A stretch of 35,670 nt of DNA. It comes from Chiloscyllium plagiosum (lineage: Eukaryota). The notes under the pieces are model-generated. The model did not search any database. It was not told the DNA's origin and saw nothing but the letters and a program-made list of their open reading frames with translations. Position 1 is the stretch's first letter, and each line of letters starts with the position of its first letter. The position numbers and the translations under genes are program-made. The stretch spans positions 52,656,254 to 52,691,923 of the forward strand of contig NC_057718.1 in assembly GCF_004010195.1 (NCBI RefSeq). The letters are read 5' to 3'. Positions 302 through 24,651 of this stretch are shown piece after piece.

Positions 302-430
302 TCCTGATGAAGGGTGTTTATGCCCGAAATGTCGACTGTCCTGCTCCTCAGAGGCTGCCTGACCTGCCGTGCTTTTCCAGCGCCATACTTTTCGACTCTG
401 ACTCTCCAGCTTCTGCAGTCCTACTTTCTG
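302..430 (+). mobile_element. Short Penelope-like (PLE) pLTR-derived element with minimal hammerhead core
   Basis: CTGATGA(304-310)-A-GGGTGT/ATGCCC hairpin-GAAA(326-329)-TGTC. Body matches the copy at 23454-23585. Flanked by direct repeat CATAGAAAT (293-301 and 431-439). Confidence 0.75.
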
Positions 431-564
431 CATAGAAATGTTGAAAGACTGATCAAATGGCAACCTTCTGGTACAAACTTTTTGACTTGGTGAACTTATG
501 AATGCTGATTGTAAGTGACATTGTCAGGACAGCAGCTCACAATCCCAACTTACTCACAGGGCAT

Positions 565-1441
565 GTTGACTATTTTGTTCTGGTAAGACAAGCTTTTCTT
601 TAAGGGTACACAAGTCCGAGTTAGCTGAGAATGCAACTCAGTGACTGTTTAGAAATGTCTCGTTTGGATTACACTCAGCTACGAGAGATATACCATGGAT
701 TGTTGCAGCTGGAAGGGTATTAAGGAATTTCAGAACAATATTTCAAAGGAAAAGATACAATACAAAAATCTGAGCCATCTCCTGTGTATTACATTCTCAA
801 ACTATGGACATAATATGCGCTAACAGAAAGCATTTGTTTCCCTGCATACATAAGAGAAGACATTAATAACTCATGGCACCTAGTGTGGTGTTCTAGTATG
901 ACTGGGCTAAAGTATACTGTGGAACATTACAGTACAGCTGAAGAACATCTGAGTGACAGCCCTGTACTCGCAGGTCAAAAGGAAAGAGGTGGAAAGGTTC
1001 TCTCTGATTGCTGGAAGCAAGTCTCCAGTCAAGTGCAGTCAAACAGGAAACCAGACATATCCTTTCAGCTAATTTACAGAAACCAGAGTCTTAAAACCAA
1101 CTGCTCAACTTCCAAAATCAAAATTACCGAAATTACTCAACATTTGCAACATTTCTGCCACCTAATTCAACACACACAAAACAAGGACTGATTTGAACTT
1201 GATCTTTTGAACTGTGATTCTTTCTCTCATTGCTAATCTGTGTGTATGAGTGTTGCATTTCATTTTCCATGACCTCGTAACTAATGAATTTGATGTTTCT
1301 TCAACTCAAGAAATGCAGTTAAATCAGCTCTGCTGGAAACATTGGGCTTAATAACACATTTTTTGGTGATATCTGTTGTGTTATTTTTTTAAAGGGATTT
1401 TTACTGTGAGATTGAGCGCAGTCTCATGAGGTATTATAACA
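565..1441. mobile_element. Possible degenerate LTR-like element
   Basis: Ends in ...TTATAACA like the solo LTRs elsewhere in the window and has LTR-like composition. No TSD found and boundaries are uncertain. Confidence 0.25.
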
Positions 1442-1659
1442 AATTCAACTCATGAACTACCTATCCCACCCCTACAATGGTCCTCTCATCTGATTCTAGC
1501 CTCATCTTATCACACACTATTCCCAGAAGAACTCACCACTGAGCAGACATCCATTGAAACATCAGCACCACGGCACCTGTGCACCCAGACATGTGCTGGC
1601 ATTTTGAAGCTGCCCAAATCTGTGCAGTACAGTCAGAAGGGAGAAGGGAGAGATGATTC

Positions 1660-2200
1660 TGTGACACTCTGACAGGCACCTGATGGTCCTGGTGGAGGGG
1701 CTGATGCAGAAGAAGGGTGACAAAGGAAGCCACAGCAGAACATGGCCCTGGGTCAGCATCTGGTTCATCCATGCCATAAGAAGGTCAACCATCCACTCCA
1801 CTCTGCCAAAGTAGGTACTGCACTCTTCTCTCTGCTACTTCACACTCACTCCATCTTTGCCAATACACACATCTCCTATCGAGGCTCATGGTCTTCTACT
1901 CATAATTGTATGTAACATTTTCCCTCACTTGTTCTGATTTCCCTCAACTCTCCCTCTTTCCTGTATCACTGTGCAGCCTGCTCACTAGCCCAGGATACCT
2001 TTGCCACCTTTTGACCATCTGTACCAGCACTAACAGTCATGATGCCCACTTTCATCTCACTCAATCCCTCTGTTTCACTTGTTTCAGGAGAAGACAGCCC
2101 AGAGTAGGGTAGGAAGGTGATTATGTGTCTGAGATCAAGCTCCTCAACTCTGATGAGAGAATCCTATCCCTAACAAAAGACCAGGACCACTTCTGTGAGG
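1660..2200 (+). pseudogene. Decayed Myb/SANT-like gene of a PIF/Harbinger-type transposon (two exon remnants)
   Basis: Translated remnants SDRHLMVLVEGLMQKK...HPCHKKVN, donor GTAGGT at 1811, acceptor TTTCAG ending 2087, then EKTAQ...EIKLLNSDERILSL. Resembles Harbinger Myb/SANT proteins (FSDxxLxxLV...QCRKKVNDL...EKxAHN). Confidence 0.45.
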
Positions 2201-2408
2201 ATATTGGGCCATCTATGTCCTGCCAATCGAGTAAGGACCACTCCATCGCTCGCATTAACCCCACTGTCAGTGTCCTTCACTACATGCCACATCTTTACCC
2301 TGGGTGTGCTGCCTTCTCATTCTTGCAGGTATCACCAGATATCCATGTCCCTGGGGAGAAAGAGACTAGTCTGCCAGAAGTCACCTCAGAGACAGTACTA
2401 ACACCTTG

Positions 2409-3200
2409 AGTCATAGATTCATAGAGATCTACAGCACAGAAGAAAGGCCCTCAGGCCATTAGAATCTGCACCGTTATAAACAAGGAACTAACTATTCTAT
2501 TCCCACTTTTTAGCAATTAATTCATGGCCTTGTATGCCTTGTTTTTCCAAGTGCACACTGAAATCCTTCGTGAATGTTATGACAGTTTCTGCCTTCAGCA
2601 CCTTTACAGGCAGTGAGTTTTGAATTCCCACAATCCTCTGGGTGAAAAATACGTTTTCTTTATATTCCCTAACACTCCTGCACCTAACCTTACGTCCCTT
2701 GGTCCCTCCACCAAGCGACAATATCTCTTCCTGTCCATGTTCCTCATAATGTTATACATCTCAATCATGTCGCCCATCAGTCTCCGCTGCTCCACGGAAA
2801 ATAACCCCAGTGTATCCAAACTCTCTTTATAACTAAAACTCTCCAGCCCTGGAAACGTCCTGGTAACTCTCCCCTGCACCATCTCCAGTGCCATGATATG
2901 GATTCTAGAACGTCACATCTACACTCTAATGTTTTAAAACAGTTCAGTTCCAGCATAACTTCACTGTTCTTAAACCTCAGCGAATAACAATAAGTATAAC
3001 ATAAACTTTCTTAATATCATTATCTACCCATACCACCACCTTAAGGAATGAGTAGACATGCACACCAAAGTACCTCTGCTCCTTGATGACTCCAGGATCT
3101 TGCCATTCATCATGCTTTCCCTTACCTTGTTTGTCCTACCAAGTGCATCACCTCACATGTATCTAAATTGGATTCCATTTGCCACTGATCAACCCATGGA
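2409..3200 (-). mobile_element. CR1 LINE 3' fragment
   Basis: Minus-strand ORF2 C-terminus (ALEMVQGRVTRTFPGLESFSYKESLDTLGLFSVEQRRLMGDMIEMYNIMR; FFTQRIVGIQNSLP) and CR1 3' tail at 2409-2460. Confidence 0.92.
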
Positions 3201-4100
3201 GGCTGTTTGCAGTGAGCTGAACTCTCCAGCCATTTTCTGGCCAAGACCTTTCAGCATCTAGCTTTTTCAACACATTAGGTAAGATAGGAAGCTGAATATT
3301 AATGAGGCATTCTGAATGTTTATTAAGGTCACCAACAAATAATAATCCCTGTTTAAAGGCAACTTTGCGTTGCCTAATGCATAAAAGATGTAGCAAGTTG
3401 CTCCACACCGAGGTCACCCTCTCCAGACTTCTCATGTGATCATGTGATCTAGGCCAGGTTGTTGAGATCCCCTTGAGATCCTGCCCCTTAGCACTTAGGA
3501 ATTGGGAAAGATACCATTGTGGAAAAGGTCCTTTGTTTTTTAAAGTTAAGTTTGTTGCAATCAATGTGTTATAATAAAGAAGAGCCAATTCCCCTCTCCT
3601 TAGCCAGGATGATAATGATCTCAGGACCCTTGCCCAGGGCTAGTAAAAATACCTGAGGGTACAGATTGGCTTCACTGAAGTGAATTCTCTGAAAGGCAGG
3701 AAGCAGAAAATCTTTCTTTTTAAATTAAGTGATTTTTGTCAAGATGAGCACTGTGTGCCTCTCTTATCTGGAGATGGTGGAACAGGAGGATACACAACCT
3801 CAGGAGAGCATTACAGGTGAGTGATGTGACACCGTTAAGTGCCAGGCTTCACAATATGACTTGTCCAGCATTCTCCTGCACAGTGTACCTCGAGTCACCT
3901 TGTACATTCACTCATTTCACTTTGTGCAGACACTCCACATACCCATATGAGCAACCAATATACATAATGACCTCCAACATATTAACCTCTCGGGCACATG
4001 CCTCACAGTGCAAATTCTGCCCTTTGCTCCTTTGAACACAAGCAATTTGTGGCACTGTCACCTCCCTGCTTTCTCTCTTTTCCAAACAATACCACAATAG

Positions 4101-4414
4101 ATTAGATTAGATTACATTACAGTGTGGAAACAGGCCCTTCGGCCCAACAAGTCCACACCGACCCGCCGAAGCGCAACCCACCCATACCCCTACATTTACC
4201 CCTTACCTAACACTACGGGCAATTTAGCATGGCCAATTCACCTGACCTGCACATCTTTGGATTGTGGGAGGAAACCGGAGCACCCGGATGAAACCCACGC
4301 AGACACGGGGAGAACGTGCAAACTCCACACAGTCAGTCGCCTGAGGCGGGAATTGATCCCGGGTCTCTGGCGCTGCGAGGCAGCAGTGCTAACCACTGTG
4401 CCACCGTGCCGCCC
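4101..4414 (-). mobile_element. HE1-type tRNA-derived SINE, full length
   Basis: Minus strand starts GGGCGGCACGGTGGCACAGTGGTTAGCACTGCTGCCTC (A box), has a B-box-like GATCAATTCC, a conserved core and an (AATCT)n tail. TSD CCACAATAG at 4092-4100 and 4413-4421 (7-9 bp; the first 2 nt overlap the SINE start). Confidence 0.93.
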
Positions 4415-4779
4415 ACAATAGTTGGGACACGTTGGAGGTTGGGGTTTTTTGACATGTATAAGGGGTGGTTTCAGTTACCAGCCTGATCCACCGGGGTTGG
4501 CGGTGATCCAACAAAACAGCAAGATGTCGGCAGTGACCTCCATGAGTGGCTCAGCCTTATAAGGCAGTGTTGGTTTCATGTGTGAAGAACTGGTTCTCTG
4601 CATGACATGGTGAACTGAGCATCCTGCCTCCTTCCACCTGCATCTTAATGGAAGACCTTACGCCTGCACGGCTGCTGTTAAAGTACTGGACAGTGCATTT
4701 GTCCAATCTGTTCTGGTGCTGCTCTGAGGGCTGCCAGTGGGGAAGTGAAACTGAAAAATTGGTGAAGCTTGTTGAGTAA

Positions 4780-4867
4780 AAGCTGAAAATGTGTTGCTGG
4801 AACAGCGCAGCAGGTCAGGCAGCATCCAGGAAACAGGAGAATCGACGTTTCAGGCATAAGCCCTTCT
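4780..4867 (-). mobile_element. PLE-derived hammerhead-family fragment (truncated in the core)
   Basis: Minus strand AGAAGGGCTTATGCCTGAAACGTCGATTCTCCTG..., same family as 23454-23548. Confidence 0.75.
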
Positions 4868-5677
4868 AAAAGGCCTACCACACAATATTAATCACCAGAG
4901 ACACAGTTATTGCACTCTGTCAGAAGGACTGCTTCATAGCATATCTATCTATTCAATTTTCCAATTCTTCACAGCAACTGATTAAAGCCTTCACAGTTTG
5001 TCAGCTTCACTGAAACATTTTCCAGCTGTACTCTCACCTTCTCTTAACTGTTGACTTGGAGAACACAACCTGATACTGCTCCCCTGTTTGGAAAGAGGGA
5101 TTCCACTGGGAAAAATCACTGAATTGTTACTTTAATGACATCAATTGGCTTCCCACCTCAACTGCAGCATTTCTCAACTTTTCCACAAACCCACCCAACA
5201 TAGCTGGAGGCAGAAACATATTGGTAAACTGACCTAATTCATTTATTTCTCATTTTCCCAGCAGTCCAGCCTCTACACCCACCTCCAAGCACCTGGGAAA
5301 ATGCCCCCATTTTCCCTGCTCCTTTTCTTTTATCTATTTCAGAGGACTTCAAAATTGACAATCATGACTGATCTTGAACAAATTGCTTTTCTTGATTACT
5401 TCATTTGTAATGCTTACTAATTTGTTCTTGAATTATTGACTTGAAACAAACTGGTCAATCACTGCTTTCTTAAACAAGCTTGCTTTATGGGCTTTCTCCC
5501 CAATCCATTGGCAAACTTGCAGCTTCAATTAAATTTTAACATCACTGTTATAATCTACCTGTTGACATTTTTCAAAACCTAGGCTGCATTCCTGTTAGAG
5601 TTGAATGACTTGTGCATGCTAAAGTCTGCTAACTGCTTTCAGAACAAATTCTTTCCATTGCAGTTATCTTAAGCCAT

Positions 5678-6436
5678 ATCCTAGGATTATGTGGGAAGCA
5701 AGAGAGGAAATTGCAGTACCGTTGACAATGATCTTCTCGTCTTCACTGGCAACGGGGGTGGTACCAGGGGACTGGAGAGTAGCGAATGTTGTGCCCCTGT
5801 TCAAAAAAGGGAATAGGGATAACCCCGGGAATTACAGGCCACACACTCTCACGTCTGTCGTCTGTAAGGAGTAAGAAAGGATTCTGAGGGACAGGATTTA
5901 TGACCATCTGGAAGAGCATGGCTTGATTTAATGCAATCAACACGGCTTTGTGAGGGGCAGGTCATGCCTCACAAACCTTACTGAGTTCTTTGAGGATGTT
6001 ACTAGGCAAGTTGATGAGGGTCGAGCTGTGGATGTGGTGTATATGGACTTCAGTAAGGCATTTGATAAGGTTCCCCATGGTAAGCTTATGCGGAAAGTCA
6101 GGAGGCATGGGATAGAGGGAAATTTGGCCAATTGGATAGAAAACTGGCTAACCGGTCGAAGGCAGAGAGTGGTGGTAGATGGTAAATATTCAGCCTGGAG
6201 CCCAGTTACAAGTGGAGTACCGCAGGGATCAGTTCTGGGTCCTCTGCTGTTTGTAATTTTTATTAATGACTTAGATGAGGGAGTCGAAGGGTGGGTCAGT
6301 AAATTTGCAGATGATACGAAGATAGGTGGAGTTGTGGACAGTGAGGTACATGGATGGGTGCTTCAGCTAGGACAAATGTTTGGCACAACATCGTGGGCCA
6401 AAGGGCCTGTTCTGTATTGTTCTATGTTCTATGTTC
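5678..6436 (+). mobile_element. Young CR1 LINE fragment with RT domain and internal deletion
   Basis: [44 protein letters not shown] motifs. In-frame stop at 5872-5874. Jumps at ~6345 to the 3' end with a (TTCTATG)n tail. Confidence 0.95.
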
Positions 6437-6437
6437 T

Positions 6438-6484
6438 ATACACACACATACACACACACACACACATACACATACACACACATA
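6438..6484. repeat. (CA)n/(CATA)n microsatellite
   Basis: Direct reading of tacacacacatacacacac... Confidence 0.9.
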
Positions 6485-6506
6485 TAAACGATGATACGAA
6501 GATTCC

Positions 6507-6921
6507 ATGGAGAGGAAGTCGTACGAGGATAGGTTGAGAGTTCTCGGCCTTTTCTCGTTGGAACGGCGAAGGATGAGGGGTGACTTGATAGAGGTTTATA
6601 AGATGATCAGAGGAATAGATAGAGTAGACAGTCAGAAACTTTTTCCCCGGGTACAACAGAGTGTTACAAGGGGACATAAATTTAAGGTGAAGGGTGGAAG
6701 GTATAGGGGAGATGTCAGGGGTGGGTTCTTTACCCAGAGAGTGGTGGGGGCATGGAATGCGCTGCCCGTGGGAGTGGTAGAGTCGGAATCATTGGCGACC
6801 TTTAAGCGGCATTTGGATAGGTACATGGATGGGTACTTAATCTAGGTTAGAAGTTCGGCACAACATCGTGGGCCGAAGGGCCTGTTCTGTGCTGTATTGT
6901 TCTATGTTCTATGTTCTATGT
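6507..6921 (+). mobile_element. Young 5'-truncated CR1 3' end
   Basis: Intact ORF2 C-terminus ([32 protein letters not shown]...FFTQRVVGAWNALP...FKRHLDRYM) and (TTCTATG)n tail. Confidence 0.95.
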
Positions 6922-7425
6922 TGTGTTCTCCTCCACTGCACCCATATTAACACACCGATATTACTGCACCTATGTTATTGCACTATATTAATGCACCTAT
7001 ATTAACATTTTAACAACAGATGCAAAATAGTAATAACTCTAATGGACCTTCAGCCTCCAGAACTGGATTCCATCTTTTACCTATGTGTAGTCTTATTCTC
7101 TCATTATTCTTTTATCAAAAATCTTATATTTTTCCCATCTGTTTGCCTTTTATTCATATTTCCTTTAGCCATTCTGATCCCCCTTGCATATTCCCTTTAC
7201 TTTCTACTTTCCACATGATTATCTTCAATATTGTTCACTGTAATTTTGTCATTTACCTTCATTTTAAGTTTGTGCTTGTGTTAAACTCTAATTAACCAAT
7301 AAACTATTTTCTTCAGTTCATCCCCTTTTCACCTTACCAGTACTTATTTATTCTGCGCTCCTTGTTACTACTTCAGTAACCTCTCTTCTTGCTTTTCTGT
7401 TTACAAGGCAGATTCTTACTTATCT

Positions 7426-7686
7426 GGAGGTGGCACGGTGGCTCAGTGGTTAGCACTGCTGCCTCACAGCACACAGGTTCAACCCTAGCCTTGGTGACTG
7501 TCTGTGTGGAGTTTGCACATTCTCCCTGTGTCTGTGTGGGTTTCCTCCCACAGTCCAAAGATGTGCAGGTCAGGTGAATTGGACATGTTAAATTGCCCGT
7601 AGTGTTAGTGCATTATTCAGAGGGTTGGTGTGGACTTGTTGGGCCAAAGGGCCTGTTTCTACACTGTAGGGAATCTAATCTAATCA
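7426..7686 (+). mobile_element. HE1-type SINE (internally deleted)
   Basis: GGTGGCACGGTGGCTCAGTGGTTAGCACTGCTGCCTCACAGC head, conserved core and GGGAATCTAATCTAATC tail. Confidence 0.9.
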
Positions 7687-8334
7687 TACTTCTGGTTATT
7701 TTCATTGTATGCCTTATTTCTTTTTATTTTTAATCTACATTGTGGTTACTACTTCACATATCAATTGTTACATTCTCATTTTGTGCGCTATAAAAAGGCT
7801 CCCATTTCCATCCCATGCAGAATCTTCATCCCAGCTCATTTTGTTGAAATCACCCAGTATTATTGCATTGTTGTTTTTAACTTATGTGTCTTCAGATTTC
7901 TTTTACTTTTTATGGGCCACAAAACATGCATTGCATCTTGAGAACTATTTTGTCTCATAATTCTTCAGAGCTACATGCATAGTTAGGAAAATCTATCAGA
8001 GTGACAACATAGTTTGATGTAAGTACATTGCAAAGAGCTTTGTCAGCGTGGAGTGCTTTCAACCAAGCAGGATCAGGAAATATATAGATAGTCAATGTAA
8101 TTAATTGGATGGAATAGGATAAGAAATGCTGAAAAGGCTGAGTTCCATTACCTACCATTTCCGTGTCATGTAGGAATGACAGGATGCTTCATGTGTCCCA
8201 AATAACTACATGTGCAGATGAGGTCTCCCAGTACCTGACATGAACTCAAGGTTTATGGACTTACAAACAGACTGAACTGACGGCAGGGCAAACAGAGAGT
8301 GGAGAATTTCTTGGTATGTATGTTCCAGAAGGTT

Positions 8335-8545
8335 GAGTCGAAAAGTGTGACACTTGAAAAGCGCAGCAGCTCAGGTAGCATCTGAGGAGCAGGAGAATTG
8401 ATGTTTCGGGCATATGCCCTTCATCAGGGGCTTATGCCTAAAACGTCAACTCTCCTGCTCCTCGGATGCTGCCTGACCTGCTGTGCTTTTCCAGCACCAC
8501 ATTTTTCGACTTTGACTCTACAGCATCTCCACATTCCTGACTGCT
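8335..8545. mobile_element. Fold-back PLE-derived element (two inverted copies), minus arm with hammerhead core
   Basis: Left arm 8335-8428 is an inverted copy of right arm 8428-8515. Minus strand reads CTGATGA-A-GGGC-ATAT-GCCC-GAAA-CATC (8427-8400). Confidence 0.75.
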
Positions 8546-8637
8546 TCAGAGGATTCAGAAAAATAGGAGGTGGGTGATTATCCATCCGTGTATGAAAAGA
8601 CATACATAACAGGTTTGTCGCAGTGTGCGGCACTCTC

Positions 8638-8965
8638 AAACATAGAAAATAGGAGGAGTAGGCATTTCAAGACTGTTCTACCATTCAATATAATCCTGAC
8701 TGATCATGCAGCTCAGTACCCTGTTCCCGCTTTCTTCATTTGCCCCTTTTCCCTTTAGCCCGATGAACTATATCTATCACCTTCTTGAAAACATTCAATC
8801 AGCATTCATCTCAGTCCTAAATAGTCCATCCCACATCCTTAGACTGTGACTCCTGCTTCTGAACTCCCCTGCCACCAGGAACATCCTCTCTGTGTTTATA
8901 CTGTCTGGTCCTCTAGAATTGTATGGGTGTTTATAGACCCCTTCTTATTCTTTTAAACTCCAGTT
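8638..8965 (-). mobile_element. CR1 LINE 3' fragment
   Basis: Reverse complement of the CR1 tail type seen at 10030-10110 (GATCAG...ATATTGAATG...) plus degenerate ORF2 end. Confidence 0.8.
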
Positions 8966-8969
8966 GATA

Positions 8970-10112
8970 TGGATATAGAACTGGTTGGCAGGTAGTACGC
9001 AAAGAATGGGAATAATTATGGGTAATTTTCTCAGTGGTTGCCAGTGACTAGTGGGGCACACACAGATCAATGCTCAGACTCCAGCTATTCATAAAATATA
9101 TTAATGAGTCAGATGAGGGAACTGAATGTAATATTTTTAAGCTTGCAGATGACACAAAGCTAAGTAGGCCTGTGAGCTGTGAGGAAAATGCAAAGATGCT
9201 TCACTGCGATTTGGACAGTTGAATCAATGTGCAAATGCATGACAGATGATGTATAAAGTGGATAAATATGAGTGAGGTTGTCCACTTTAGTAGCAAAACA
9301 GGAAGGGGGTTGTTATCTGAATAGTGATAGATTGGGAAAGGAGTAGATGCAACATGACCTGGGTGCCCATGCATGCCAGTCACTGAAAGTAAACATGCAA
9401 GAGCAGCAGGGGGTGAAGAAGGCAAATAGTATGTTGAAGAGTGTGGTGCTGGAAAAGCACAGCCAGTCAGGCAGCATCCAAGAAGCAGGAGAGTCGACAT
9501 TTCAGGCATAAGCCCTCATGGTATGTTGGCCTTGCTGCAATTGTACAAGCCCTTGTTCAGACCACAAATGGAGTATTGAGTGCAGTTTTTGTCTCTTTAC
9601 CTGAGGAAGGATGTTTTAGCTATGGAGGGAACGTAATGAACGTATGGAGAAACCAGACTGATTTCTGAAACAGGAGAGACTGAATTATTTAGGACTGTAT
9701 TCACTAGAGTTTAGAAGAATAAGAAGGGATCTCATAGAAAACTCTAAACTTCTAACAGGACGCAGTAGTTTACATGCAAGAAGGATGTTCGTGATGGCTG
9801 GGGATTCCAGAATCAGGGAGGACAGTCCAAAGGACATGGAATAAGCCATTTAGGACTGAGATTAAGAGAAAATTATTCAGCCAGAGAATGGTAAACCTGC
9901 AGAATTCTCTACCATAGAAAGTAGTTGACGCCAAAACATTGAATGTTTTCAGAGAAGGAGATAGATATAGTGCTTAGGGCTAAAGGAATCAAATGGTATG
10001 GGGTGAAAACGATAAAAGGGTACAGAATAAGACGATCAGCCCTGACCATATTGAATGAGGGAGCAGGCACGGAGGGCCCAACAGCTGACTCTTGTTCTTA
10101 TTTTCTTGTTTC
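8970..10112 (+). mobile_element. Old CR1 LINE 3' fragment
   Basis: WIENWL, VTSG, KLADDTKL remnants and CR1 3' tail. Interrupted by a PLE fragment at 9437-9520. Confidence 0.88.
9437..9520 (-). mobile_element. PLE-derived hammerhead-family fragment inserted in CR1
   Basis: Same family as other copies. 8-bp TSD GTATGTTG at 9429-9436 and 9521-9528. Confidence 0.8.
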
Positions 10113-10874
10113 AAATATATTTCCAATTTCAAAGAAAATAAATAATTTACAGGTTTTTGGGAAAATGTAGGTATTTGTGGTAAATTGGATAGATGTACCA
10201 AAGGGCCAGCACAGGCTTAATGAGACAAATGGGCTTAGTCTGTGCTGCTTGATTGTATGATTCTACAATTCTCAATTATATTCACATGGATTCGGTCTAA
10301 ACACCTGAGGGGAGCCTAAAAATGCTAGGTCTGTAATCAAATTCTATAGTATCACTGGCATCTCCAAATCCCTTGAAAACATTCGACTTAGAAATGCAGA
10401 ACGTGACACTATATCAAACCAGTGTTTTGTAACCATTTAATACCCTGGAGCAATACAGTGCTGCAAGTTGCTCCAGGCAGAATCTTATGTCCTTCAATAA
10501 TAATCATGGGGCAGCACTATTTCTAAATCTTAACAAAGCACTTGTCAGCAATGTTCAATGATACCTTCACAGAATGCCTGTGACCACAGTTTTGATCTGT
10601 TGATCCCGGGTGTGTTTGATGGGGTTTGTGAGCAGTGAGCCCTGAAATAGGCCTCATAGGCACTGCAACCAACTGATACCGGGCTGACTCCTGGCACCTG
10701 GTGTGCTTTGGGATAAACTGGGGACCCAACCTGGAGTGCCCCCAAGTGACCTGCAATTGGCCATTTAATTATTCAAATTGACTACCCACTGTTGCCATTT
10801 ATGACAAACATCTGAACTCCTGACCTCATCCCTCCACACATACATTCTCTCTCAATGTCCACCAGCCTACTTAC

Positions 10875-10990
10875 ACAGGACCAGGAAGATTTCACCTGTT
10901 GTGCCCACAAGTGCTGCCAAGGAATTGATATCATCCATATGCACTTCCTTCAAAGTGATAAACAAATTTGTAGCCGACTTAATTTCCAGT
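10875..10990 (-). other. Candidate small exon of the minus-strand gene
   Basis: Acceptor TTTAACTTTAG (weak pyrimidine tract) and donor TGT|GTAAGT, with alternative CAG|GTGAAA ending at 10897. One frame is open (LEIKSATNLFITLKEVHMDDINSLAALVGTTGEIFLVL). Non-repeat-looking sequence. Confidence 0.3.
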
Positions 10991-13963: not shown

Positions 13964-14364
13964 CTGCACAAGGAGTGAGAAAGAGAGGAGAAAAAAAATC
14001 ATATTTATTAGTTTTGACTAAGAGGTCATCTTCACCTGAGTGTTCAAATGTGTATTTCTCATATCTCAGCCTCACCAAAACATAATGCATTAGATACCTC
14101 TACTTCACCCAGGATGTGTTCGCTGAAGTCTGCTACCTTCTGCAGCCCAAAGAGTTTCATGGTACAAGGATAGCACTACCAGCCATGGCAAAAGTGACTA
14201 TGGATATGAAGTTGAATGAGTTAGACTTTTGCTGGGCAGTAGCAGGTGACATTTGCCAATTCACTTTTCATTTTTGCATATGGAAGCCGACTGAACTGTG
14301 TGAAAAGATAGGTGAATACATTGTATTCCTTCTTGCGAGAGGGAAGCCTACAAAGTGAACACGT

Positions 14365-15138
14365 TTTGGAAAGGCAAATCAGGGCAGGACTTATGCACTT
14401 AATGATAAGGCCCTAGGGAGTGTTGCTAAACAAAGAGACTTTGGAATGCAGGTCATAGATCCTTGAAAGTGCAGTCACAAATAGACAGGATAGTGATGAA
14501 GGCATTCAGTGCGCTTGCCTTTATTGGTCATTGTGTTGAATATAGGAATTGGAAGATATGTCATGGCTGTCCAGGACTTTGGTTACACCACTTTTGGAAT
14601 ACTGCATTCAGTTCTAGTCTCCCTGTTATAGGAAGGATGTTGTGAAACTTGAAAGGGTTCAGAAAAGATTTACAAAGATGTTGCCAGGGTTGGAGGGATT
14701 GAGCTATAGGGAGAGGCTGAATGCGCTGGGGTCATTTTCCCTGGAGTGTCGGAGGGTGAGGGATGACCTTATGGAGGTTTATAAAATCATGAGGGGCATG
14801 TTTAGGGTGAATAGCCAAGGTCTTTTCCCTGGGATTGGGGAATCCAAAACTAGAGGGCATAGATTTAAGGGGAAAGACTTAAAAGGGACCTAAGGGACAA
14901 TCTGTTTCACACAAATGGTGGCACACATGTGGAATGAGCTGCCGGAGGAAGTGGTGGAGGCTGGTATAATTACAACATTTAAAAGACATCTGGATGGGTA
15001 CATGGATAGGAAGGGTTTAGAGGGATATGGACCAAATGCAGGCAAATGGGACTATATTAATTTAGGATATCTGGTCTGCATGGACGAGTTGGACCAAAGG
15101 GTCTGTTTCCATGCTGCATAGCTCTATGACTCTATGAC
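14365..15138 (+). mobile_element. CR1 LINE 3' fragment
   Basis: LERVQKRFTKMLPGLEGLSYRERLNALGSFSLECRRVRDDLMEVYKIMRG, WNELPEEVVEAG...FKRHLDGYM and (CTCTATGA)n tail. Confidence 0.95.
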
Positions 15139-15789
15139 ATGACTTTGCCAGTAATGTAGGCTTCCCTCTGGTGAAGGGTGCTCGCCACAGCATCCCTCCC
15201 TTTGAAGACACATTGTGTAAATTTTGAGATGTAAGACAACAGAAAGAGGATTCAATCCCTCGACATCTAGTAGCTATAGTCTGCACAATATGCAGGTCAA
15301 TCAACATTATTGTGGCAGCAGTCTGCTGCATTATCACCATCTGAGCTACAAAGAAAGCCAAACAAAATGGCTACAGGATGATTATAGCTACCTGACAATT
15401 ACCTTGTTCCTGATTCCAGTACAGAAAGCACTTACATATCATCAGGATGCACACAACAAGAACCATTAAAACCATTTGAAAATTCATCAAACAAAACTTG
15501 GGGGTGCATAAGCAATGTTTCATTGCTTGAACTATTATGGAGAAGATCTGCAAAACTCACCAGAGCATGGGTTATGATTCATTTTTGTTTGCTGCTTCCT
15601 GCAGGATCTAACCAAAATGAGGACACTGTTAGTGTAAGGTGTGCAAGAGGAGAAAATCAACAATACAAGAAGTTGTATTTACATAATATCTTTCATATGA
15701 TAAAACAAGATACTGTATACGTATGTTTTAAATCAAGACTTGATGTTGAGTTGTATGATGCATTATTATGGCAGATAGCCAAACTGTTT

Positions 15790-16320
15790 TTGTAAAGATT
15801 TGTTTTGGAGGATGTATTATAAGGAGGACAGAGAGTTACAGTGTACAGAGAAGGAATTTCAGTGTCCAGATGACTAAAGGCGAAACCAACAATTGTGGAG
15901 GAATGAAAATTGGGGGTATCAATGAAGCTTGAATTAAATGAGTACAAATATCTGGGAAAGTTGTAGAGCTGGAACAGATTATATACATGAAAAAAAGAGA
16001 GCGCAGCTATGGAGGAACTTAAAATTTTAAAATTGAGGCATTATTTGTGTAGAATCCAATCAAGTTCCGTGAGTTCAGGAAAGATGACTGAATGGAGTTT
16101 ATGGCATGAATTAGATAGACATTGGAATTTTAGATGACATCAAGTCTACACAGAGTGGACTGTGGGACACTGACTAGGAATGTATTGGAATCATCAATGT
16201 GAAAGATAACTGATGAACTGAGCCTTATATGGAGGTAGGGAGAAATGTGAAGGTGGAAACAAATGGTCTCAGTAAAAGTCAGAAGCTTATCCTGGGGATC
16301 AAATATGATTCACATTTAGG
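15790..16320 (-). mobile_element. Degenerate L2-type LINE 3' fragment
   Basis: Purine-rich plus strand (AGAGAAGGAATTTCAG...AAAGGCGAAACCAACAATTGTGGAG) resembles the antisense 3' region of vertebrate L2 elements. Recognised from memory only. Confidence 0.5.
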
Positions 16321-16600
16321 GACAGAATGACCCAAACTGTGCTTATTTTTTAGTTTAGTTATGAGAGATTATTAAGCTCAGTATATTTTAGCAATAACTG
16401 GTTTATATATTAAAGGAATTACTTACAGCATTAAAGAAGTATGACTAACTTTGCTGATTCCATGATCCTTTTCCTCTTTCCAATGTATCCAAGTGAGTCT
16501 CTCTGATATTCTTTCCTTTCTCTTCATCTCTTACATTGTCCCATACATTAATACTTTTGAGCACTTACATCAGATCTTTCTGCATTCATTATTATTTTGA

Positions 16601-16752
16601 CAAGAGGTTAGGTTAGTTCAGTTGGTTGGACATCTGTGTTGCACTGTAGAGTGATACCAACAGTGAAAGTTGAGATTACCACAAAGGTTCCGTCTTCTCA
16701 ACCTCAAACCCCATCTGAGGCATGGTGTCTCTCAGTTAAAATCGCTACCAGT

Positions 16753-16789
<37 letters not shown>

Positions 16790-16822
16790 ATGAGAGTGTG
16801 GTCCTCCGGGACTACAGCAAGG
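16601..16822 (+). mobile_element. tRNA-derived SINE (non-HE1 family) with internal (CT)n
   Basis: A-box-like TTAGTTCAGTTGG head and (CT)~15 at ~16757-16787. 12-bp TSD TTATTATTTTGA at 16589-16600 and 16823-16834. Confidence 0.7.
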
Positions 16823-17814
16823 TTATTATTTTGATATGTGACCAATGTCAACTCAAATCTCTAACATCAGAGATTCAAACAATCAGAAGATTTCAAAACT
16901 CTCCCTGATCTTGATTGTTCCTGTAAGACCCACTCTGATTTATTATTTCTTGACTTCATACAGTTTTCATGAATTTCATCCAAACATATGGAGGATTGAT
17001 ATCTTTGATGAATAATCATAAAGTTATCCTGCTTCTTATTGAATTGTATACCAAGTGAGATCTCTGTTGATTATCATCTCTTTGGTCAATTACTCTGCCT
17101 TGGTCTTTAACTCATACTTTTCTCCTTTAATCAGTATACTATGATAGCTCTTGTTATAGTTTAAAGTTATTGCTTTTGAGAAAAGGTTTCTTCATCTTGA
17201 ACTGTTTGATAGTCCTGCATTTCTAGTTCCAGTAATACTTTGTGTTTTGGATAGAATAGGAAGTGGCATTTAGCTCTGACAGTGCAAAGCTACATTTAAG
17301 TGGAGTGGATTTGTAGGTTACTAAAATGGCCCTCAAATCTCCACTTTTCTTTAGAAGTGCTTCAATAATTCTGACTCCTCTTTCAGCTTCAGTATTGTAT
17401 TGAGGATGTCTCAGGCAAGAATTACAAATCCAGCATTTTTCACAATCTGTAGTTATTTATAAATTGTACATCAATTTTGGAGAGAATCTGATCAAGAATT
17501 CCAAATGTTGCGTAAATCTCTCTTTTTAAAGCTAAATTATAGTCTCAGTAGTTGCTGTATACAATGTGATTTTGATCCACCAGGAAATAATGGCGGACTA
17601 TCAAAGAAGATTTTCTATTAAACATGAATAGCTCCAGCTCCAGACATTCCTGAGGCAGGGTTAGAATTTGAGTTGGAACAAGAAGTTCTTTCAGTTTTAG
17701 TCTTTGGCAATTAGAAATAATTTATTTGACAGATTTTGGTATTCCTGGTTACCACACAGATGATGGGGCATGTGCTTTGTATTCTGCAATACCCTTGTGG
17801 CTCTGGTGTATTTT

Positions 17815-18114
17815 AGATTAGATTAGTTTAGATTAGTTTAGATTAAAGCGTGGAAACAGGCCCTTCGGCCCAACAAGTCACACCGCCCCGCCGAAGTGCA
17901 ACCCACCCATACCCCTACATTTACCCCTTACCTAACACTACAGGCAATTTAGTATGGCCAATTCACCTGACCTGCACATCTTTGGACTGTGGGAGGAAAC
18001 CGGAGCACCCAGAGGAAACCCACGCAGACACGGGGAAAACGTGCAAACTCCACACATTCAGTCACCTGAGGCGGGAATTGAACCCGGGTCTCTGGCGCTG
18101 TGAGGCAGCAGTGC
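17815..18114 (-). mobile_element. HE1-type SINE inserted in Gypsy integrase
   Basis: Near-identical to 4101-4414 but missing the first ~20 nt, with (AATCT)n tail. Flanked by TATTTT on both sides. Confidence 0.92.
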
Positions 18115-19585
18115 TATTTTCTGGGTATTTTCTGGGGTGAAATTAGAATCACCAACCTCTATTCATGTAACCAGCAAATCATCCATAATTATAAAATACT
18201 TCATGCTAACATTGACATTGGTGAATGCAGATGCTTCTTCATCTTGCATCTCACATGACAAATTTCTTGGAGCTATTCTGAACTTGCCATCCAGTGTGCT
18301 GCAGCGACCTGGGAATATGATTCCTCTGTTTCAAAATACGCATAGCATGGTCAATGATATCTCAAGACAATGCATTTGCTGTTATTTACAATTTGCTCCA
18401 TACTTTTACCATTTCATAAGTGCACCTCATTAATCTCCACTGGAATGTTAGGATTTGTAGAGACTTTCAGGAGAGTTATTTTCATCAAGTAATGAGATTA
18501 GGAATTGTGCTCTTTCTCCATGACAACCTTTAAGAAGGTTTCATATGCCAAAGATTGTAAAAGTCTTTTTTCTATGATGGAGTATCTCATCCCAGTTATG
18601 ACAATGCCAAGATAAATAATGAGCTGTATGTGATGCCAAATAGCTGACATTGAAAGAGGAATACCTCAACACTGTAAATAAGACAGCAACTTTGGCCAGT
18701 AGTGAGGGGTTATAATGTGTTAAGACATTTGGCAAAATCAGCATTTCCTTGACCTTTTGAAACAATCATTTGAGTTTTCTTTAATATTCCTCTTAAGAGT
18801 TCTAAGAGTGCTAGATTTGGCAAAACATTTTCTGAGTTGCTTAACCATTCCAAGTGAGCATGAAGGTCTTGAACAAACTGGAAAATGGGAATTCATTAAT
18901 GGTTCTTATTTTTTTGCACTTGCTGCTAATTATGTGTTCGAGGGAATGGTAGTTTTTTTTTAAGAATTCACACTTATTGTTACTGTAGGCCTTCTCCTGG
19001 TCAATGATTTAAATATGCTTGTACCCTCTGATAACATGAAATATTTGACATAGTTCTTTGGAAAATTTCAGGTGTTGAGGTTATACTGAATGTCAGAAGA
19101 TTAAAATGAAATCTTCTGAACAAAGTAAAAAGATCATCAGCAACTCTGATTTTACAGCCAACAAGACTTGCCAAAACCTACAGTTTATGTCCAGCTTTGT
19201 GGCTGTGGTGCTTTTGGACAAATTCCCAAGCTTTCATCCATCGAGAGCATTGAATGAATTACTACAGCATTATTAAGTTAATTCTATACAAATACAAAGA
19301 GTACTGTCAATTTTCAGACCTGGAACCGTTCCAGAGCACTACAATGTAGGCTTAGTGACGGGAGAAATTATTTCCGTTGTGGTCATCTCTTTTAGCTGAA
19401 TTGGATTTGCTTTATTGATGAGTGTACTATTTTCTTAGGCATGAAAAGACAAAGGTTTAACATCTTTCCACAAAGCAATATTATACTTGGTCTTACATCT
19501 TCCTAGATCAAGAAATAATTTTATCAAGTCTATTTTTTAAAAAGCACCTGTTGATCCCTGCTGCTTAACTTCTTCCACTTTCTGG

Positions 19586-20038
19586 TGTGACAGTACTGTG
19601 GCTTTAAGAAGCGTCGCTTTGTCCTTTTTAAAAAAAAAAGATGCTTTAAGACAGAGGTGATAAATTGTCTCTTCCAAGCTAATAAAGTAAACAGCTTGGC
19701 AGGCCCTTTTTTTAAGTTAGAACAATAGAAGCATCATGAATAGGTGGAGTCAGGCTCCCATAAAATAAGGGTTTTAGTTTAGATTTGAGTTATTGAGGGT
19801 ATTGAAATTGGTTGTGGAAGCTGTTATAATCTTTCTGCCACAGCAAAAGCTGGAGTTCTCTCTCTCTCTGGCAGAGTTTTCTCTTGGTGTTCTTTTCTCC
19901 TGGACTGGAGAAACATTGCATGTGAGGCAATCTATTTTATTGAATTTGCCTTTGCCAAGGGTGTGTTTATGACATATTACTACATTGGAACAGTTGCTGT
20001 TTAGTAGCTAAATACTCTATTTGGTCTTGTCCATAACA
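19586..20038 (+). mobile_element. Solo LTR (family A), inserted in Gypsy pol
   Basis: TGTGA...ATAACA termini and 4-bp TSD CTGG (19582-19585, 20039-20042). Homologous to 25156-25780 in opposite orientation. Transcriptional strand not established. Confidence 0.88.
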
Positions 20039-22595
20039 CTGGATAAAATTAATGTTTAAACAAGAGCTTCTATATAAAATGCAAAATTCTTGATTTTTGT
20101 CAAATAAACAGTGTTTCAAACACCTGCCTGAGCTTGTACTGGAGTACTGCTTTCCCTCTGCTTCGAAAATTAACCTCTCCTGAATCAAATTAATTCAGTT
20201 GGTTTTTAGACAACTTTTGAATAAAGTTAGTGATATATCTGTTGACATTTATATCTGCTTTCCAAATTGGATGATTTGGAGTAGTGTTCTGATCAAGGAG
20301 ATTTCATAACCATGAAAGTCAGAGTTTTACGTTTGCACATCTTCCCAAAGGGCCAACATTTTGAAGGGAAAGCATTCCAGCTTTTTTGCAGGACACTGTT
20401 GGTGCAACACACTGGCAGGAGTTTACAGTATTTAGCACTTTCCCTCTCAAGTGTAATTTGCTTTTCTGGTATTTCTTTCACAGTATTATGCTTAAGGAGC
20501 TGTCTGGTGACTGGAGGTTACATGAACCAAGGTTTTCTTCATCTCTCAGAGTTACACTTCTGTTTACACACCTCTGCGTATATCAACAGCTATATTGCTT
20601 TTTCTAAGGTGAGCTCTTCCTTAGTCTGCAAAAAGCCTGATAAAGATTAATCAGCAATATCTACATGGTGTAACCTCATATTAATTCTATTTTAGATCTC
20701 CATATTTGCATTCTTTAACTAGCCTGTAAAGGTCATCAATAAAAGTGTCTACTGGCCTCTGACCACTTCTGACTAATTTGGCTCGAAGAGCTTGTTTCTC
20801 CCCAGGTTGAAGTCGCTATCAAAAGCTTTTAAGACTTCCTCAAATTTGTTTGAAGCATCTTTATTGCTTTAATTTGCAATAACATCATCTGTTATTGTTC
20901 AATGGAGTATGATGTCAACTTGTTTTACTTTGGAATCCCTTTCTAAATTCGAAACAATTCCTTATCTCAATTTTCTTTCTCTGAAGTGCCCTGGTTTGAG
21001 TCTGATTTTGGCGCATTCATGTGTTCAAATCGCTCAGATAATATCTCGCTTTTTTTCTTTAAACTTTCTAATTGATTAATTTGCTGGTTTAAGTTTTCCT
21101 TTGGCTTTGAATGTTTTCTCATACTCCCACTGCAGTCACTGTTATTTCTCAAAGAACCTCTCTGTTACACTAGTTACTTATATTTTGAAACATGCAAAAA
21201 TCAAAAGCTGTTTTATTTCAGTTTAATAACCTTTTCACTGCCTCTTCCTGGAGCTGCATTTGGTTAAGGTTTGCTTTTCTATTTCATTGCCTCCACAGTT
21301 AATGGTGTCAATATCACATTGAGTCTGTTAGGTGTTTTATTATGAGCTGTTTTTTCTAAAGGGTAGAATCTCCCAGCCTAGCTGTCTGTCTAGTGTGCCA
21401 TTAAGACATTTCTTTTACCATGTAAAGGTTGCTTACCACTTCCCTGATAGCTCTGACTTGAAGCCTGCAATTACTTGAGCAGGATTTTCTTTATAGGCTT
21501 CTTATGTGTAGCCTGAGTGCCTTTGCAAGTTGATTTTTTGACTATTGCACTGCCTACTTTCTGTCAACAGAGTAACTTTAGAGTTTTTTGCTGTCTCTTC
21601 CCAATCTACTTCCCAGATTTGGTGTCATTTGTTTCAGGTTTGATTTTGGAAACTTCTTTAAAGTTTATTTTTCAAACGCTTCTGGTATTATTCACAAACA
21701 TTGCATATTTGATTAGTCCAGCTGGGAGAGTTTACTGATCTTTCAATCTTTTAACAAGAACAATATTTTTATATGTTACTTAACCAAGTATAACATTACA
21801 GAAGTATGGATAATTGATGATGCCATGATACTCTCCCCTCATTGTCATTTTATGTGATTATTTAAATTATCATAGTGGTGGGTTCTACTCACACTGTCCC
21901 AGACATTAATCCATTCAAATCTTTGTATTGAAGCCCAATGAATGCAAGCTCAATTCTCTATTTACAAACAGTTCCACACATCATGTTCTCTTTATTACTG
22001 CCATGAAGGCATCCGCACAAGTGACAATGCTGAAATAAATTCCACCACAAAATGAACATTACAAAACAACTCGCTAAAACAAATCACAACATATTCTGTA
22101 CAAAACTAATCATGCTTGTGCTTATCTTTTAGCCCTGAATTCTGTATGCCTTTACTAGTCTTAGTTCTGCTATGTAGTGCTCCTCCAGGGGCTGCAACAT
22201 GACTAACGGAAGACAGCTGACTTTCAATGGGGAAAATGGCAGATCAATGACATCAAGCATCTCTGGCCCTAAAAGGCCCAACATCTTTAGTATGTATGCT
22301 TGCAGCCTCAGGCTGGCTGGTTGACAAGTAAGAGAAAGGACACCAACAGATCGGTGAATATTTTGATCTTGAGGCAGAAAGCAACACAGAATCTCTGAAA
22401 TCCCAAAAGCGTAAATCATAGGAATGTGTTGAAGTGCTAGAGTGCTGCAAGATTCTGTCAGGCTCTTTACACATACTGGTGGTACTTAGTGATTTCAATC
22501 TCAGGTTCCATTACAGCTTTCAGAATTTGATTGATCCATTGATGGTGTTTCTTCCATAGCCCCCTTCTGGTTAAGTGCTGAAACTAATTATAGTA

Positions 22596-22985
22596 CCATA
22601 GAACCATAGAAATGATACAGCACAAAAGGGTGCCGTTCGGCCCAACTTGACCATGCCGATCCATGTATGATGTGTCACCTTGCCCTGTAAGAGAGAGAGA
22701 ATGTATCTATGCTATGTGTTTAGAACATAGATCGATATAGCAAAGTCTCTGGCTATTTACTCTATCTATGCCTCTCATCATCTTGTACACCTCTATCAAG
22801 TCACCTCTCACCCTTCTTTGTTCCAAAGAGAAAAGCCTTAGCTCCCTCAACCTTTTTATTTAATTAAATGTGCCTTCCAAACCAGGCAGCATCCTAGTAA
22901 ATCTCCTCTGCATCCTTTCTAAAGCTTCCACAACCTTCCTATAATGAGGCAACCAGAACTGAACACAATATTCCAAGTTTAAGTG
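22596..22985 (-). mobile_element. CR1 LINE 3' fragment
   Basis: Tail (CATAGAAC)n and LEYCVQFWLPHYRKVVEALERMQRRFTRMLPGLEG. Confidence 0.88.
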
Positions 22986-23353
22986 ATGCGATGATCTGCA
23001 TGAAGAGTTGACAATGTGTGAAAGCTTGCAGCAGTGTAAAACGTGAGAAGGTGAGGTTAGACATGTGCATGCTAGATTAAATTCACACAGGCTGTTGTTT
23101 GGGGTGTGATATATTGAGCAGTATGTGAGGATATGGTGGCATTTGGTGAGATGTGGCATTTGAAGAATTATTTACTGACCATGACTGTTCATGTGAGATC
23201 ATTGACCTTTTGCTGCTGTCCATTCAGGTCCGTGTAACCAGACTCTTGACATTGACCTTCCCAACAAAGAATATTAACATTGAATATGGAACAGTATGGC
23301 ACATGAACAGGCCCTTCAGCCCCTGTGCTGACCATGATGCCATTCTAAACTAA

Positions 23354-23585
23354 GCTGAAAAATGTGTTGCTGGAAAAGTGCAGCAGGTCAGGCAGCATCC
23401 AAGGAGCAGGAGAATCGACGTTTTGGGCATAAGCCCTTCTTCAGGAATGTATGATTCCTGAAGAAGGGCTTATGCCCGAAACGTCGATTCTCCTGCTCCT
23501 TGGATGCTGCCTGACCTGCTGCGCTTTTCCAGCAACACATTTTTCAGCTCTGATCTCCAGCATCTGCAGTCCTCACTTTCTCCTA
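23354..23585 (+). mobile_element. Fold-back PLE-derived element with hammerhead core, 15-bp TSD
   Basis: 95-bp inverted arms (23354-23448, 23454-23548; 2 mismatches), 5-nt loop and 37-nt tail. TSD GCCATTCTAAACTAA at 23339-23353 and 23586-23600. Confidence 0.9.
23454..23492 (+). ncRNA. Minimal type I hammerhead ribozyme-like motif
   Basis: CTGAAGA(23458-23464)-A-GGGC-TTAT-GCCC-GAAA(23478-23481)-C-GTC, with predicted cleavage after 23485. Stem III has no loop and stem I is very short. Confidence 0.65.
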
Positions 23586-23951
23586 GCCATTCTAAACTAA
23601 TCCCATCTGCCTGCACATGATCCTTATCCTTCTATTCCCTGCCTGTTCATGTATCTGCATAAATGCCTCATTAACATTGCTACCGTTTCTGCTCATATCA
23701 CCTCCCCTGGCAGTGCATTCCAGGCACCTATGATTCTCTGTGTAAAAGTCTTTCTTCACACACCTCCTTTAAATTCTTCCCCTCTCATATTAAACCTATT
23801 TCCCATAGTATTTGACATTTCTGCCCTTTCTTAATTTTATATGCACTTCTCTCATAGCCTTAGCCTCCAATGCTCTAGTGAAAACAGTCCAAATTTGCCC
23901 ATGCCCTCCTGATATCTAATACATTCCAATCCAAACAACATTCTGTTTAAC

Positions 23952-24349
23952 TAGGAGAAAGTGAGGACTGCTGATGCTGGAGTGCCAGAGTTGAACAATG
24001 TGGTGCTGGAAAAACACAGCAGGCCAGGCATCATCCGAGGAGCAAATTCCTTTCCCCCTCCCTTTTATCTCAGCCCGCAGCCCCAAATTCCTTCCCCCCT
24101 CCCTTTTATCTCAGCCCGCGGCCCCAAATTCCTTCCCCCCACCTTTTATCTCAGCCCGTGGTCCCAAATTCCTTCCCCCTCTACCTTTTATCTCAGCCCG
24201 TGGCCCCAAATTCCTTGCCCCCTACCTTTTATCTCAGCCCGCTTGACACACCAGCCTCATTCCTGAAGAAGGGCTTCTGCCCGAAACGTCAATTCTCCTG
24301 CTCCTTGGATGCTGCCTGGCCTGCTGTGTTTTTCCAGCCCCATATTTTT
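23952..24349. mobile_element. PLE-derived element with inverted ends, internal tandem array and hammerhead core
   Basis: Antisense end 23952-24043, array 24044-24242, sense end with CTGAAGA(24263-24269)-A-GGGC-TTCT-GCCC-GAAA-CGTC. TSD CAACATTCTGTTTAAC at 23936-23951 and 24350-24365. Confidence 0.85.
24044..24242. repeat. ~40-42 bp tandem repeat, 5 copies
   Basis: Unit approx. AAATTCCTTCCCCCCTCCCTTTTATCTCAGCCCGYGGCCCC. Confidence 0.92.
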
Positions 24350-24516
24350 CAACATTCTGTTTAACCTAATTTTGCACCCTCTTCAAAGCCTCCACATCCT
24401 TCCTATGGTATGGTGACCAGAACTACACAGAAGACTCCAAATGTGGCCTAACTAATGTTTTATTCAGCTGCAACATGACTTGCCAACTTTTATACTCAAT
24501 GCCCTGATGGATGAAG

Positions 24517-24651
24517 AATGGGAAAGTGAAGCGCTTATGCTTGAAATATCAACTCTCCTGCTTCCTCAGATGCTGCCTGACCTGCAATGTTTTTCCAGCA
24601 CCACGCTTTTTGACGCTGATTCTCTAGCATCTACAGTACTCACTTTCTCCA
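24517..24651 (+). mobile_element. Older PLE-derived copy with decayed core
   Basis: GTGAAGCGCTTATGCTTGAAATATC...CACTTTCTCC. Imperfect 16-bp TSD GCCCTGA(TG/CT)GATGAAG at 24501-24516 and 24652-24667. Confidence 0.75.

Follow-up and report, generated by a model that had tools for sequence, protein, structure and literature searches.

Minimal hammerhead ribozymes of Penelope-like elements (PLEs) share several recurring features, namely one additional nucleotide that sits between position 9 and position 10.1, a G10.1-C11.1 pair and a palindromic 15.2-16.2 segment, and occur mostly as single dispersed copies with low activity even as dimers (PMC4209133). Insertions of endonuclease-bearing (EN+) PLEs typically comprise an inverted 5'-truncated copy, a 30-40-bp tail at one end and a short target-site duplication (TSD) (PMC8557442, PMC3846280, PMC8969392). 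In the Poseidon element of Anolis carolinensis, PAc (Frangieh et al. 2024, PMC11167929), this tail is the stretch between two internal start sites of the reverse transcriptase (RT). PAc RT starts 111-118 nt into an open reading frame (ORF) that begins at stem II, its activity needs the first 172 nt of the ORF, i.e. about 55 nt 3' of the RT start, and cleavage by the hammerhead requires the element's own protein. Here we describe a family of short repeats in a window of 35,670 nt from the genome of Chiloscyllium plagiosum (NCBI RefSeq assembly GCF_004010195.1, contig NC_057718.1, positions 52,656,254 to 52,691,923). The repeats are separate insertions with two fixed 3' end sites, inverted pairs in which one arm carries a tail, and a minimal hammerhead. 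We consider it highly probable (roughly 85%) that they are dead-on-arrival, 5'-truncated insertions of the 3' end of an abundant EN+ PLE, each consisting of a pseudo-long terminal repeat (pLTR) with a hammerhead, with or without a 35-nt tail.

The window is 43% GC, contains remnants of the long and short interspersed nuclear element types (LINE and SINE) and ends in a 19-bp satellite. With the arm at 23454-23584 as reference (reference position 1 is 23454; its own ends were set from comparison with the other arms) and as query for blastn and nhmmer, we found ten arms at seven loci, called L1 to L7 in their order along the window. All belong to one family (blastn E ≤ 7e-25; nhmmer profile search E ≤ 2e-16), with an arm similarity of 75-98% across reference positions 13-93. 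An earlier annotation of this stretch, made from the sequence alone and referred to here as the original prediction, had named seven insertions, all of which are present and related by both methods. Its count of at least seven stands for the loci, while the number of arms is corrected to ten, three loci being inverted pairs. Seven loci in about 31.4 kb outside the satellite agree with the density of about one per 5 kb given there, and the description of the repeats as heavily truncated, very abundant PLE products is supported by insertion anatomy and contig counts. No further copy was detected in the window by blastn or nhmmer, save a weak tail-like match at 28882-28910 (E 2.8e-4) within 28870-28985 (minus strand), possibly what is left of an old copy from a related family.

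The contigs of sequencing run X1 indicate how common the family is. Contigs placed on 23300-24420 amount to 141,176 of 16.5 million, a count that includes other repeats in the stretch. Contig ends at 23583, 23584, 23585 and 23586 number 835, 988, 756 and 570 (total 3,149, a lower bound because some ends went uncounted), and beyond these positions the contigs enter unrelated AT-rich sequence (agreement 0.33-0.35). Because thousands of contigs end at this site, the long 3' end is fixed genome-wide and the family is very large. The short 3' end was absent from the X1 loose-end positions among the matches listed, besides which 2,406 more rows exist.

The combination of inverted pairs, tails and TSDs is a PLE signature that the original prediction had missed. 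Head-to-head inverted pairs make up three of the seven loci, L3 (8335-8542), L5 (23353-23585) and L6 (23952-24353), and their centres are all different. Five arms end at reference positions 92-96 and the other five at 124-133, so that the two 3' end sites lie about 35 nt apart, and in all three inverted pairs the tail is found on exactly one arm. L5 is the youngest locus, with a tailless left arm (23353-23449, minus strand, reference 0-96) and a tailed right arm (23454-23585, plus strand) that are 98% identical; the tail itself, about 35 nt between the two 3' end sites, occupies 23550-23584 (plus strand). In L3, the left arm (8335-8428, minus strand, reference 4-92) has the short 3' end and meets head-to-head a right arm with a decayed tail (8428-8542, plus strand, reference 13-124). 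The left arm of L6 (23952-24044, minus strand) carries a tail, is 5'-truncated at reference position 41 and has no hammerhead, while its tailless right arm (24212-24353, plus strand) is the sole arm to reach upstream of the hammerhead. Between them lies a 41-bp tandem of 4.9 copies (24043-24242, plus strand), whose last unit overlaps the upstream sequence of the element; the other units are apparently a local expansion of this upstream segment, which might have arisen by repeated re-priming at insertion or by later slippage. The remaining loci are single arms: L1 with a tail (300-430, plus strand, reference 1-128), L2 short and without a tail (4781-4867, minus strand, reference 9-96, core incomplete), L4 short (9433-9517, minus strand, reference 12-93), and L7 with a tail (24528-24651, plus strand, reference 10-130, core incomplete and decayed).

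TSDs were found at five of the seven loci, and their scores were compared with those of 1,000 random position pairs. They measure 9 bp at L1 (293-301 and 431-439), 11 bp with one mismatch at L4 (9426-9436 and 9518-9528), a perfect 15 bp at L5 (23339-23353 and 23586-23600), a perfect 16 bp at L6 (23936-23951 and 24350-24365) and 16 bp with two mismatches at L7 (24501-24516 and 24652-24667). Scores at least as high occurred in 1.1% of the random pairs for L1 (P ~0.011), 4.4% for L4 (P ~0.044) and at most 0.3% for L5, L6 and L7. No AT bias of the target was seen, as 42 of the 67 TSD letters are A or T compared with a background of 59%. L4 lies within an older LINE-like remnant (9300-9620), the source of its 11-bp TSD.

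These units resemble the described EN+ PLE units (Arkhipova et al. 2013, PMC3846280; Craig et al. 2021, PMC8557442) in their head-to-head inverted ends, in a tail of 30-40 bp on one arm and in strong 5' truncation, and the described units likewise have short TSDs (about 8-10 bp) or none. They differ from the units in those accounts in that they are only 90-400 bp long without an ORF remnant, their TSDs reach 16 bp and their 5' ends are clustered at the hammerhead.

A descriptor search of the window recovered four full hammerhead cores where 0.34 were expected, all inside arms, and with the plain descriptor only 1 of 100 shuffles reaches four. The motif begins with CUGANGA and a single additional A, continues with a stem II of 4 bp that carries a loop of 4 nt, and closes with GAAA and CGUC; CTGANGA alone occurs in the window at chance frequency (24 seen, 24.9 expected). 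The original prediction, which had suggested such a search, listed the same four cores and assigned them to the minimal type I hammerheads of the PLE kind, an assignment supported by the four cores, the extra A and the G10.1-C11.1 pair. The core at 23458-23485 (plus strand) is the sole one with all conserved positions, the ACGT palindrome and a 2-bp stem I, and its predicted cut falls after 23485. The others deviate from it: 304-333 (plus strand) has a 2-nt insertion in stem II and ATGT for ACGT, with a 2-bp stem I; 8400-8427 (minus strand) has ACAT for ACGT and no stem I; and 24263-24290 (plus strand) keeps ACGT, but its stem I opens with a C.A mismatch in place of the first pair. Contiguous stem I thus measures 2, 0, 2 and 0 bp for the cores at 304, 8427, 23458 and 24263, so that the 2-bp stem I claimed previously holds for the first and third, and the ACGT palindrome claimed alongside it only for the last two. 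Given the mismatch, a cut after 24290, expected in the original prediction, is not a fair prediction, and we rejected this core as a test substrate. In a fifth arm, the left one of L5, the core pattern is present with a natural G12-to-A change.

Across the arms, the extra A at reference position 12 is found in all eight that cover it. This nucleotide had been called atypical, but it is listed among the recurring features of PLE hammerheads in PMC4209133. The G10.1-C11.1 pair is kept in five of nine arms, the others showing a C-to-T change at a CpG, and the ACGT palindrome (15.1-16.1, the segment for helix III of a dimer) is also kept in five of nine. Stem II has 4 bp (GGGC/GCCC), and its loop reads TTAT in seven of the nine arms covering the stem. 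Since all stem II changes (reference columns 13-24) are one-sided, mostly at CpGs, and seven of nine loops are TTAT, the loop variation with preserved GGG/CCC pairing noted in the original prediction is better described as decay, and we rejected covariation. An Rfam search, also suggested there, gave no hammerhead at E ≤ 5 in the window and returned only hairpin-driven microRNA matches below their own cut-offs.

Stem II of the isolated arm is predicted to be stable (P 0.97). The first stem I pair of the 23458 core forms with a probability of 0.01-0.4, and for five of six fragments the minimum-energy fold of the isolated arm does no better than shuffled sequence. In read-through RNA, the 23458 core would be buried in a 96-bp hairpin (minimum free energy -199.7 kcal/mol; stem II probability 0.0), and the 8427 core would be buried in a fold-back hairpin likewise. 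A dimer between the two arms of one inverted pair was considered and rejected, because the arms sit on opposite strands and cannot dimerise together, and the read-through hairpin buries the core. Most cores in the window look dead, judging from CpG decay, a stem I of 0-2 bp and the predicted hairpin sequestration. In RNA run X21, 3,990 of 12.96 million records (about 2% of the run read) match the family on both strands, and 97% of these reads continue into unlike flanks, the pattern that passengers in host transcripts would give. Nowhere on the family do read ends pile up in this single-cell poly(A) library, which is poorly suited to show a cut.

With the metazoan PLE hammerheads described by Cervera and De la Pena (2014, PMC4209133), the window motifs share the type I form without helix III, the palindromic 15.2-16.2 segment, the extra nucleotide between 9 and 10.1 and the G10.1-C11.1 pair. 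The described motifs are also mostly single and dispersed, derived from truncated PLEs, with some close pairs on opposite strands. The window motifs differ in their short helices, with 2 bp in helix I and no more than 4 bp in helix II, although a helix I of 2 bp is described for the PLE of D. virilis in the same paper. In addition, no complete PLE was seen for the window family.

The connection to PLE proteins comes from other families. A looser core pattern had no match in viral contigs and at least 123 matching stretches in metagenome contigs, of which 122 loci with 127 matches were examined. These loci apparently belong to many other families in animal host DNA, and among the matches listed they match the window family only in the core. 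Within the same set, 37 of the 127 hammerheads follow the C-terminal end of a PLE-type protein encoded on their own strand, 56-399 nt downstream of it, and 36 of these 37 are within 56-164 nt of the protein end. At one comparison locus (L017), a 330-aa frame ends 130 nt before its hammerhead. The frame itself has no Pfam match; full-length relatives of the frame (P0012: 48% identity, E 2e-85) carry RVT_1 and GIY-YIG domains, each at or near the cut-off. In the comparison copies the ends fall about 55-65 or 105-119 nt beyond the cut, compared with about 62 and 99 nt in the window, and an inverted upstream arm is present in 26 of 109 comparison units (21 loci). Stem I covaries among them: pairs 1-4 are formed in 56, 55, 54 and 40 of 62 distinct flanks, which are related rather than independent, against shuffle means of 48, 35, 28 and 25. 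These families provide a strong indirect link between the window repeats and PLEs.

Several results nonetheless weigh against a PLE origin of the repeats. The link is one of architecture, not of sequence: 226 PLE-like proteins gave no meaningful tblastn match in the window, the two open frames of the arm match no PLE protein, and exact patterns of the family had no match in viral, metagenome or prokaryote genome contigs. On the upstream side, the arms extend no more than about 50 nt beyond the core, while the comparison ORFs end 56-164 nt upstream; the window arms therefore reach too little upstream to show an ORF end. Stem I is at least 3 bp in 43 of the 62 comparison flanks, but 2 bp in the window. 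Two loci have no convincing TSD, as none was recovered for L3 and the 6-bp flank repeat of L2 is at chance level. One result in favour carries a caveat: the core columns are better kept than reference positions 33-96 (86 of 88 versus 555 of 620 letters, P 0.010; 70 of 70 versus 461 of 498 once CpG columns are left out, P 0.009), which fits selection in the source elements, but the test counts kindred arms as if they were independent, and alignment edges work in its favour. The original prediction would have been undermined by a core no more conserved than its flanks; the core is better kept, to a degree that kinship and alignment edges inflate.

Homology searches with the PLE-type proteins returned no shark-labelled protein among the 65 matches listed for one search and the best 120 of 1,231 for the other. 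Two FUBP3-like gene models of Chiloscyllium plagiosum match a 43-aa frame of the family at 70% with their C-terminus. A family copy supplies the last ~37 residues of these two predicted isoforms (P0002/P0003), either by exonisation or as a gene-model artefact. An NLR-like protein matched by the same frame was dismissed as spurious. We found no description of the family in the literature on Penelope in combination with shark, hammerhead, Chiloscyllium or elasmobranch repeats, a search whose scope excluded most subscription papers, repeat databases and supplements that may list shark motifs.

By analogy with PLE work, the insertions most likely arose as follows. The GIY-YIG endonuclease encoded by the element would cut the target, and RT would begin on uncleaved element RNA at either of two internal positions, thereby creating the two 3' ends, and copy only 85-130 nt. 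In three of the seven loci a second, inverted copy would be made before the gap is closed, and repair would then close the gap and leave the TSD. The hammerhead would be a passenger of the pLTR, under selection in the source elements and in neutral decay in the window copies; in the source elements it probably cuts weakly, only as a dimer or with help from protein. None of the ten arms starts at the cut site and nine extend past it, which suggests that the template is uncleaved RNA, as for PAc in vitro, where templates are uncut at the ribozyme and no RNA-seq ends fall at the cut site (PMC11167929). The family also resembles PAc in having two 3' end sites that flank a tail downstream of the hammerhead. 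PAc is a Poseidon element, whereas among the comparison proteins the nearest ones carry a Cys linker ahead of GIY-YIG, which is the Neptune/Nematis pattern (PMC8557442). The stubs are probably not copied again, since they are without the sequence 3' of the tail that PAc needs (PMC11167929), although mobilisation in trans by pLTRs alone in a rotifer provides a counter-example (PMC3846280).

One further point against simple dead-on-arrival PLE insertions is that plain random truncation does not explain where the arms begin. Eight of the ten arms start at reference positions 0-13, the 5' edge of the hammerhead, whichever 3' end (96 or 131) they have. For six of seven loci to start in such a zone has P ~3.5e-6 under the best constant truncation rate with ten zones allowed, for a zone chosen after seeing the data and a small sample. 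CUGA is retained in five arms, four of which stop no more than 5 nt from it, whereas only 11 of 82 comparison units stop within 10 nt (Fisher 0.003 by arm, 0.013 by locus). Summed X1 depth, which is not copy number, is about 7 million in the bins of the core and 0.22 million directly upstream of them, a fall of about 30-fold that is partly owing to divergence of the window copy; of a family depth of 218,245, about 1,500 is left upstream of 24212.

A tentative refinement of the PLE reading, to which we give a fairly low probability, would account for this boundary by RT running off its template. RT would start at 5'-proximal sites of the element mRNA, whose 5' terminus would coincide with the hammerhead's front edge, and fall off there, as in strong-stop synthesis, and the free cDNA end would fold back or re-prime to give the inverted arm. 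The clustered starts, the excess of stops near CUGA and the fall in depth all favour this idea. It also fits, without being proven by, two further observations: PLE transcripts are described as starting inside the pLTR (PMC2377424), and an ATG in loop II (23472; eight of nine arms) lies 113 nt before the tail end, like the 111-118 nt of PAc (PMC11167929). However, the frame of this ATG matches no PLE protein, and longer templates exist, since one arm continues upstream for at least another 45 nt. The caveats on the post hoc zone, the small sample and copy divergence apply here in full, and the X21 library, poorly suited as it is, has no pile-up of read ends. We found no relevant paper on strong-stop products in the literature on Penelope-like elements. 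Alternatively, RT could stall at a folded or protein-bound hammerhead on a longer template, which we regard as unlikely. Such stalling would produce the same clustering, stem II is predicted to be stable in the isolated arm, and the need of the PAc hammerhead for the element's protein (PMC11167929) would be compatible with a bound state. Yet a stall is expected at the 3' side of the structure, and the ends lie 5' of or within stem II; moreover, in the comparison families that share this core, copying mostly passes through it (52 of 82 units extend at least 50 nt).

The original prediction had further proposed that the repeats may behave like a retrozyme or ribozyme-SINE. In its general form, this would be a self-propagating, non-autonomous family with a 130-nt master RNA that the hammerhead releases or an internal promoter produces, and that a PLE copies in trans. 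The defined 5' zone, the huge excess of stubs and the lack of any ORF found would agree with it, pLTR sequences sufficed for trans-mobilisation in the rotifer (PMC3846280), and vertebrate retrozymes derive from pLTRs (bioRxiv 10.64898/2026.07.22.740005). Animal non-LTR retrozymes, as described in that preprint, are likewise pLTR-related and non-coding with a type I hammerhead, and one chondrichthyan example is reported. However, they are head-to-tail tandems with a hammerhead in each unit, while the window copies are single or inverted and the window holds no such tandem. The claim also finds no support in the arms themselves, which have no match to a B box of RNA polymerase III, no poly(A) or simple-repeat tail at their ends and no 5' end at the cut. 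The different centres of the three pairs, the continuation of 97% of the family reads into unlike flanks and the lack in the stubs of the ~55 nt 3' of the RT start that PAc needs (PMC11167929) point the same way, and we consider such a family improbable. A chance look-alike inside some other short repeat (a miniature inverted-repeat transposable element, MITE, or a SINE), with no ribozyme ancestry, would suit the missing Rfam match, the folds no better than shuffles and the marginal stem I, but is very improbable in view of four core matches where 0.34 are expected, the same 27-nt architecture with covarying stem I beside PLE ORF ends in other animals, and variable TSDs and one-sided tails that are not MITE features.

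As a hammerhead discovery the family matters little, as such motifs have been described in truncated PLE ends in thousands of copies elsewhere among animals, and the finding is ordinary apart from the 5' boundary clustered at the front edge of the hammerhead. What the family offers is a large set of natural PLE insertion products. Should the boundary hold genome-wide, it would bear on which RNA serves PLEs as template, on whether the ribozyme cuts it and on the origin of the inverted ends. If RT indeed runs off the mRNA 5' end, the stubs would map the transcript start and a fold-back step of the PLE cycle, and the dominant PLE product would be an undescribed, integrated counterpart of retroviral strong-stop DNA.

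Other repeats in the window are of different kinds. The 19-bp satellite (31540-35670) comprises at least about 185 units of 82-90% identity and reaches the window end. LINE-type RT remnants lie at 5683-6920 (plus strand), with an RVT_1 match of E 1.6e-21 for 5935-6339 (Pfam; tblastn), and at 25998-26241 (minus strand); the former terminates in a TGTTCTA repeat, and we take both to be of the CR1/L2 type. A second family of about 300 bp and 70-94% identity is present at 4098-4413, 7429-7685, 17821-18116, 26264-26592 and 27147-27334, with B-box-like matches and TTAGA-type repeats at one end, and resembles the shark HE1 SINE. An inverted pair of about 400 bp and 65% identity (19586-19995 and 25399-25780) possibly represents two old repeats of the long terminal repeat type. 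Two GGTGAG donor-like sites, noted by eye only, are located at 30850-30920 (minus strand) near a CpG-richer stretch; they suggest the first exons of a leftward gene, in which case the PLE loci would be intronic.

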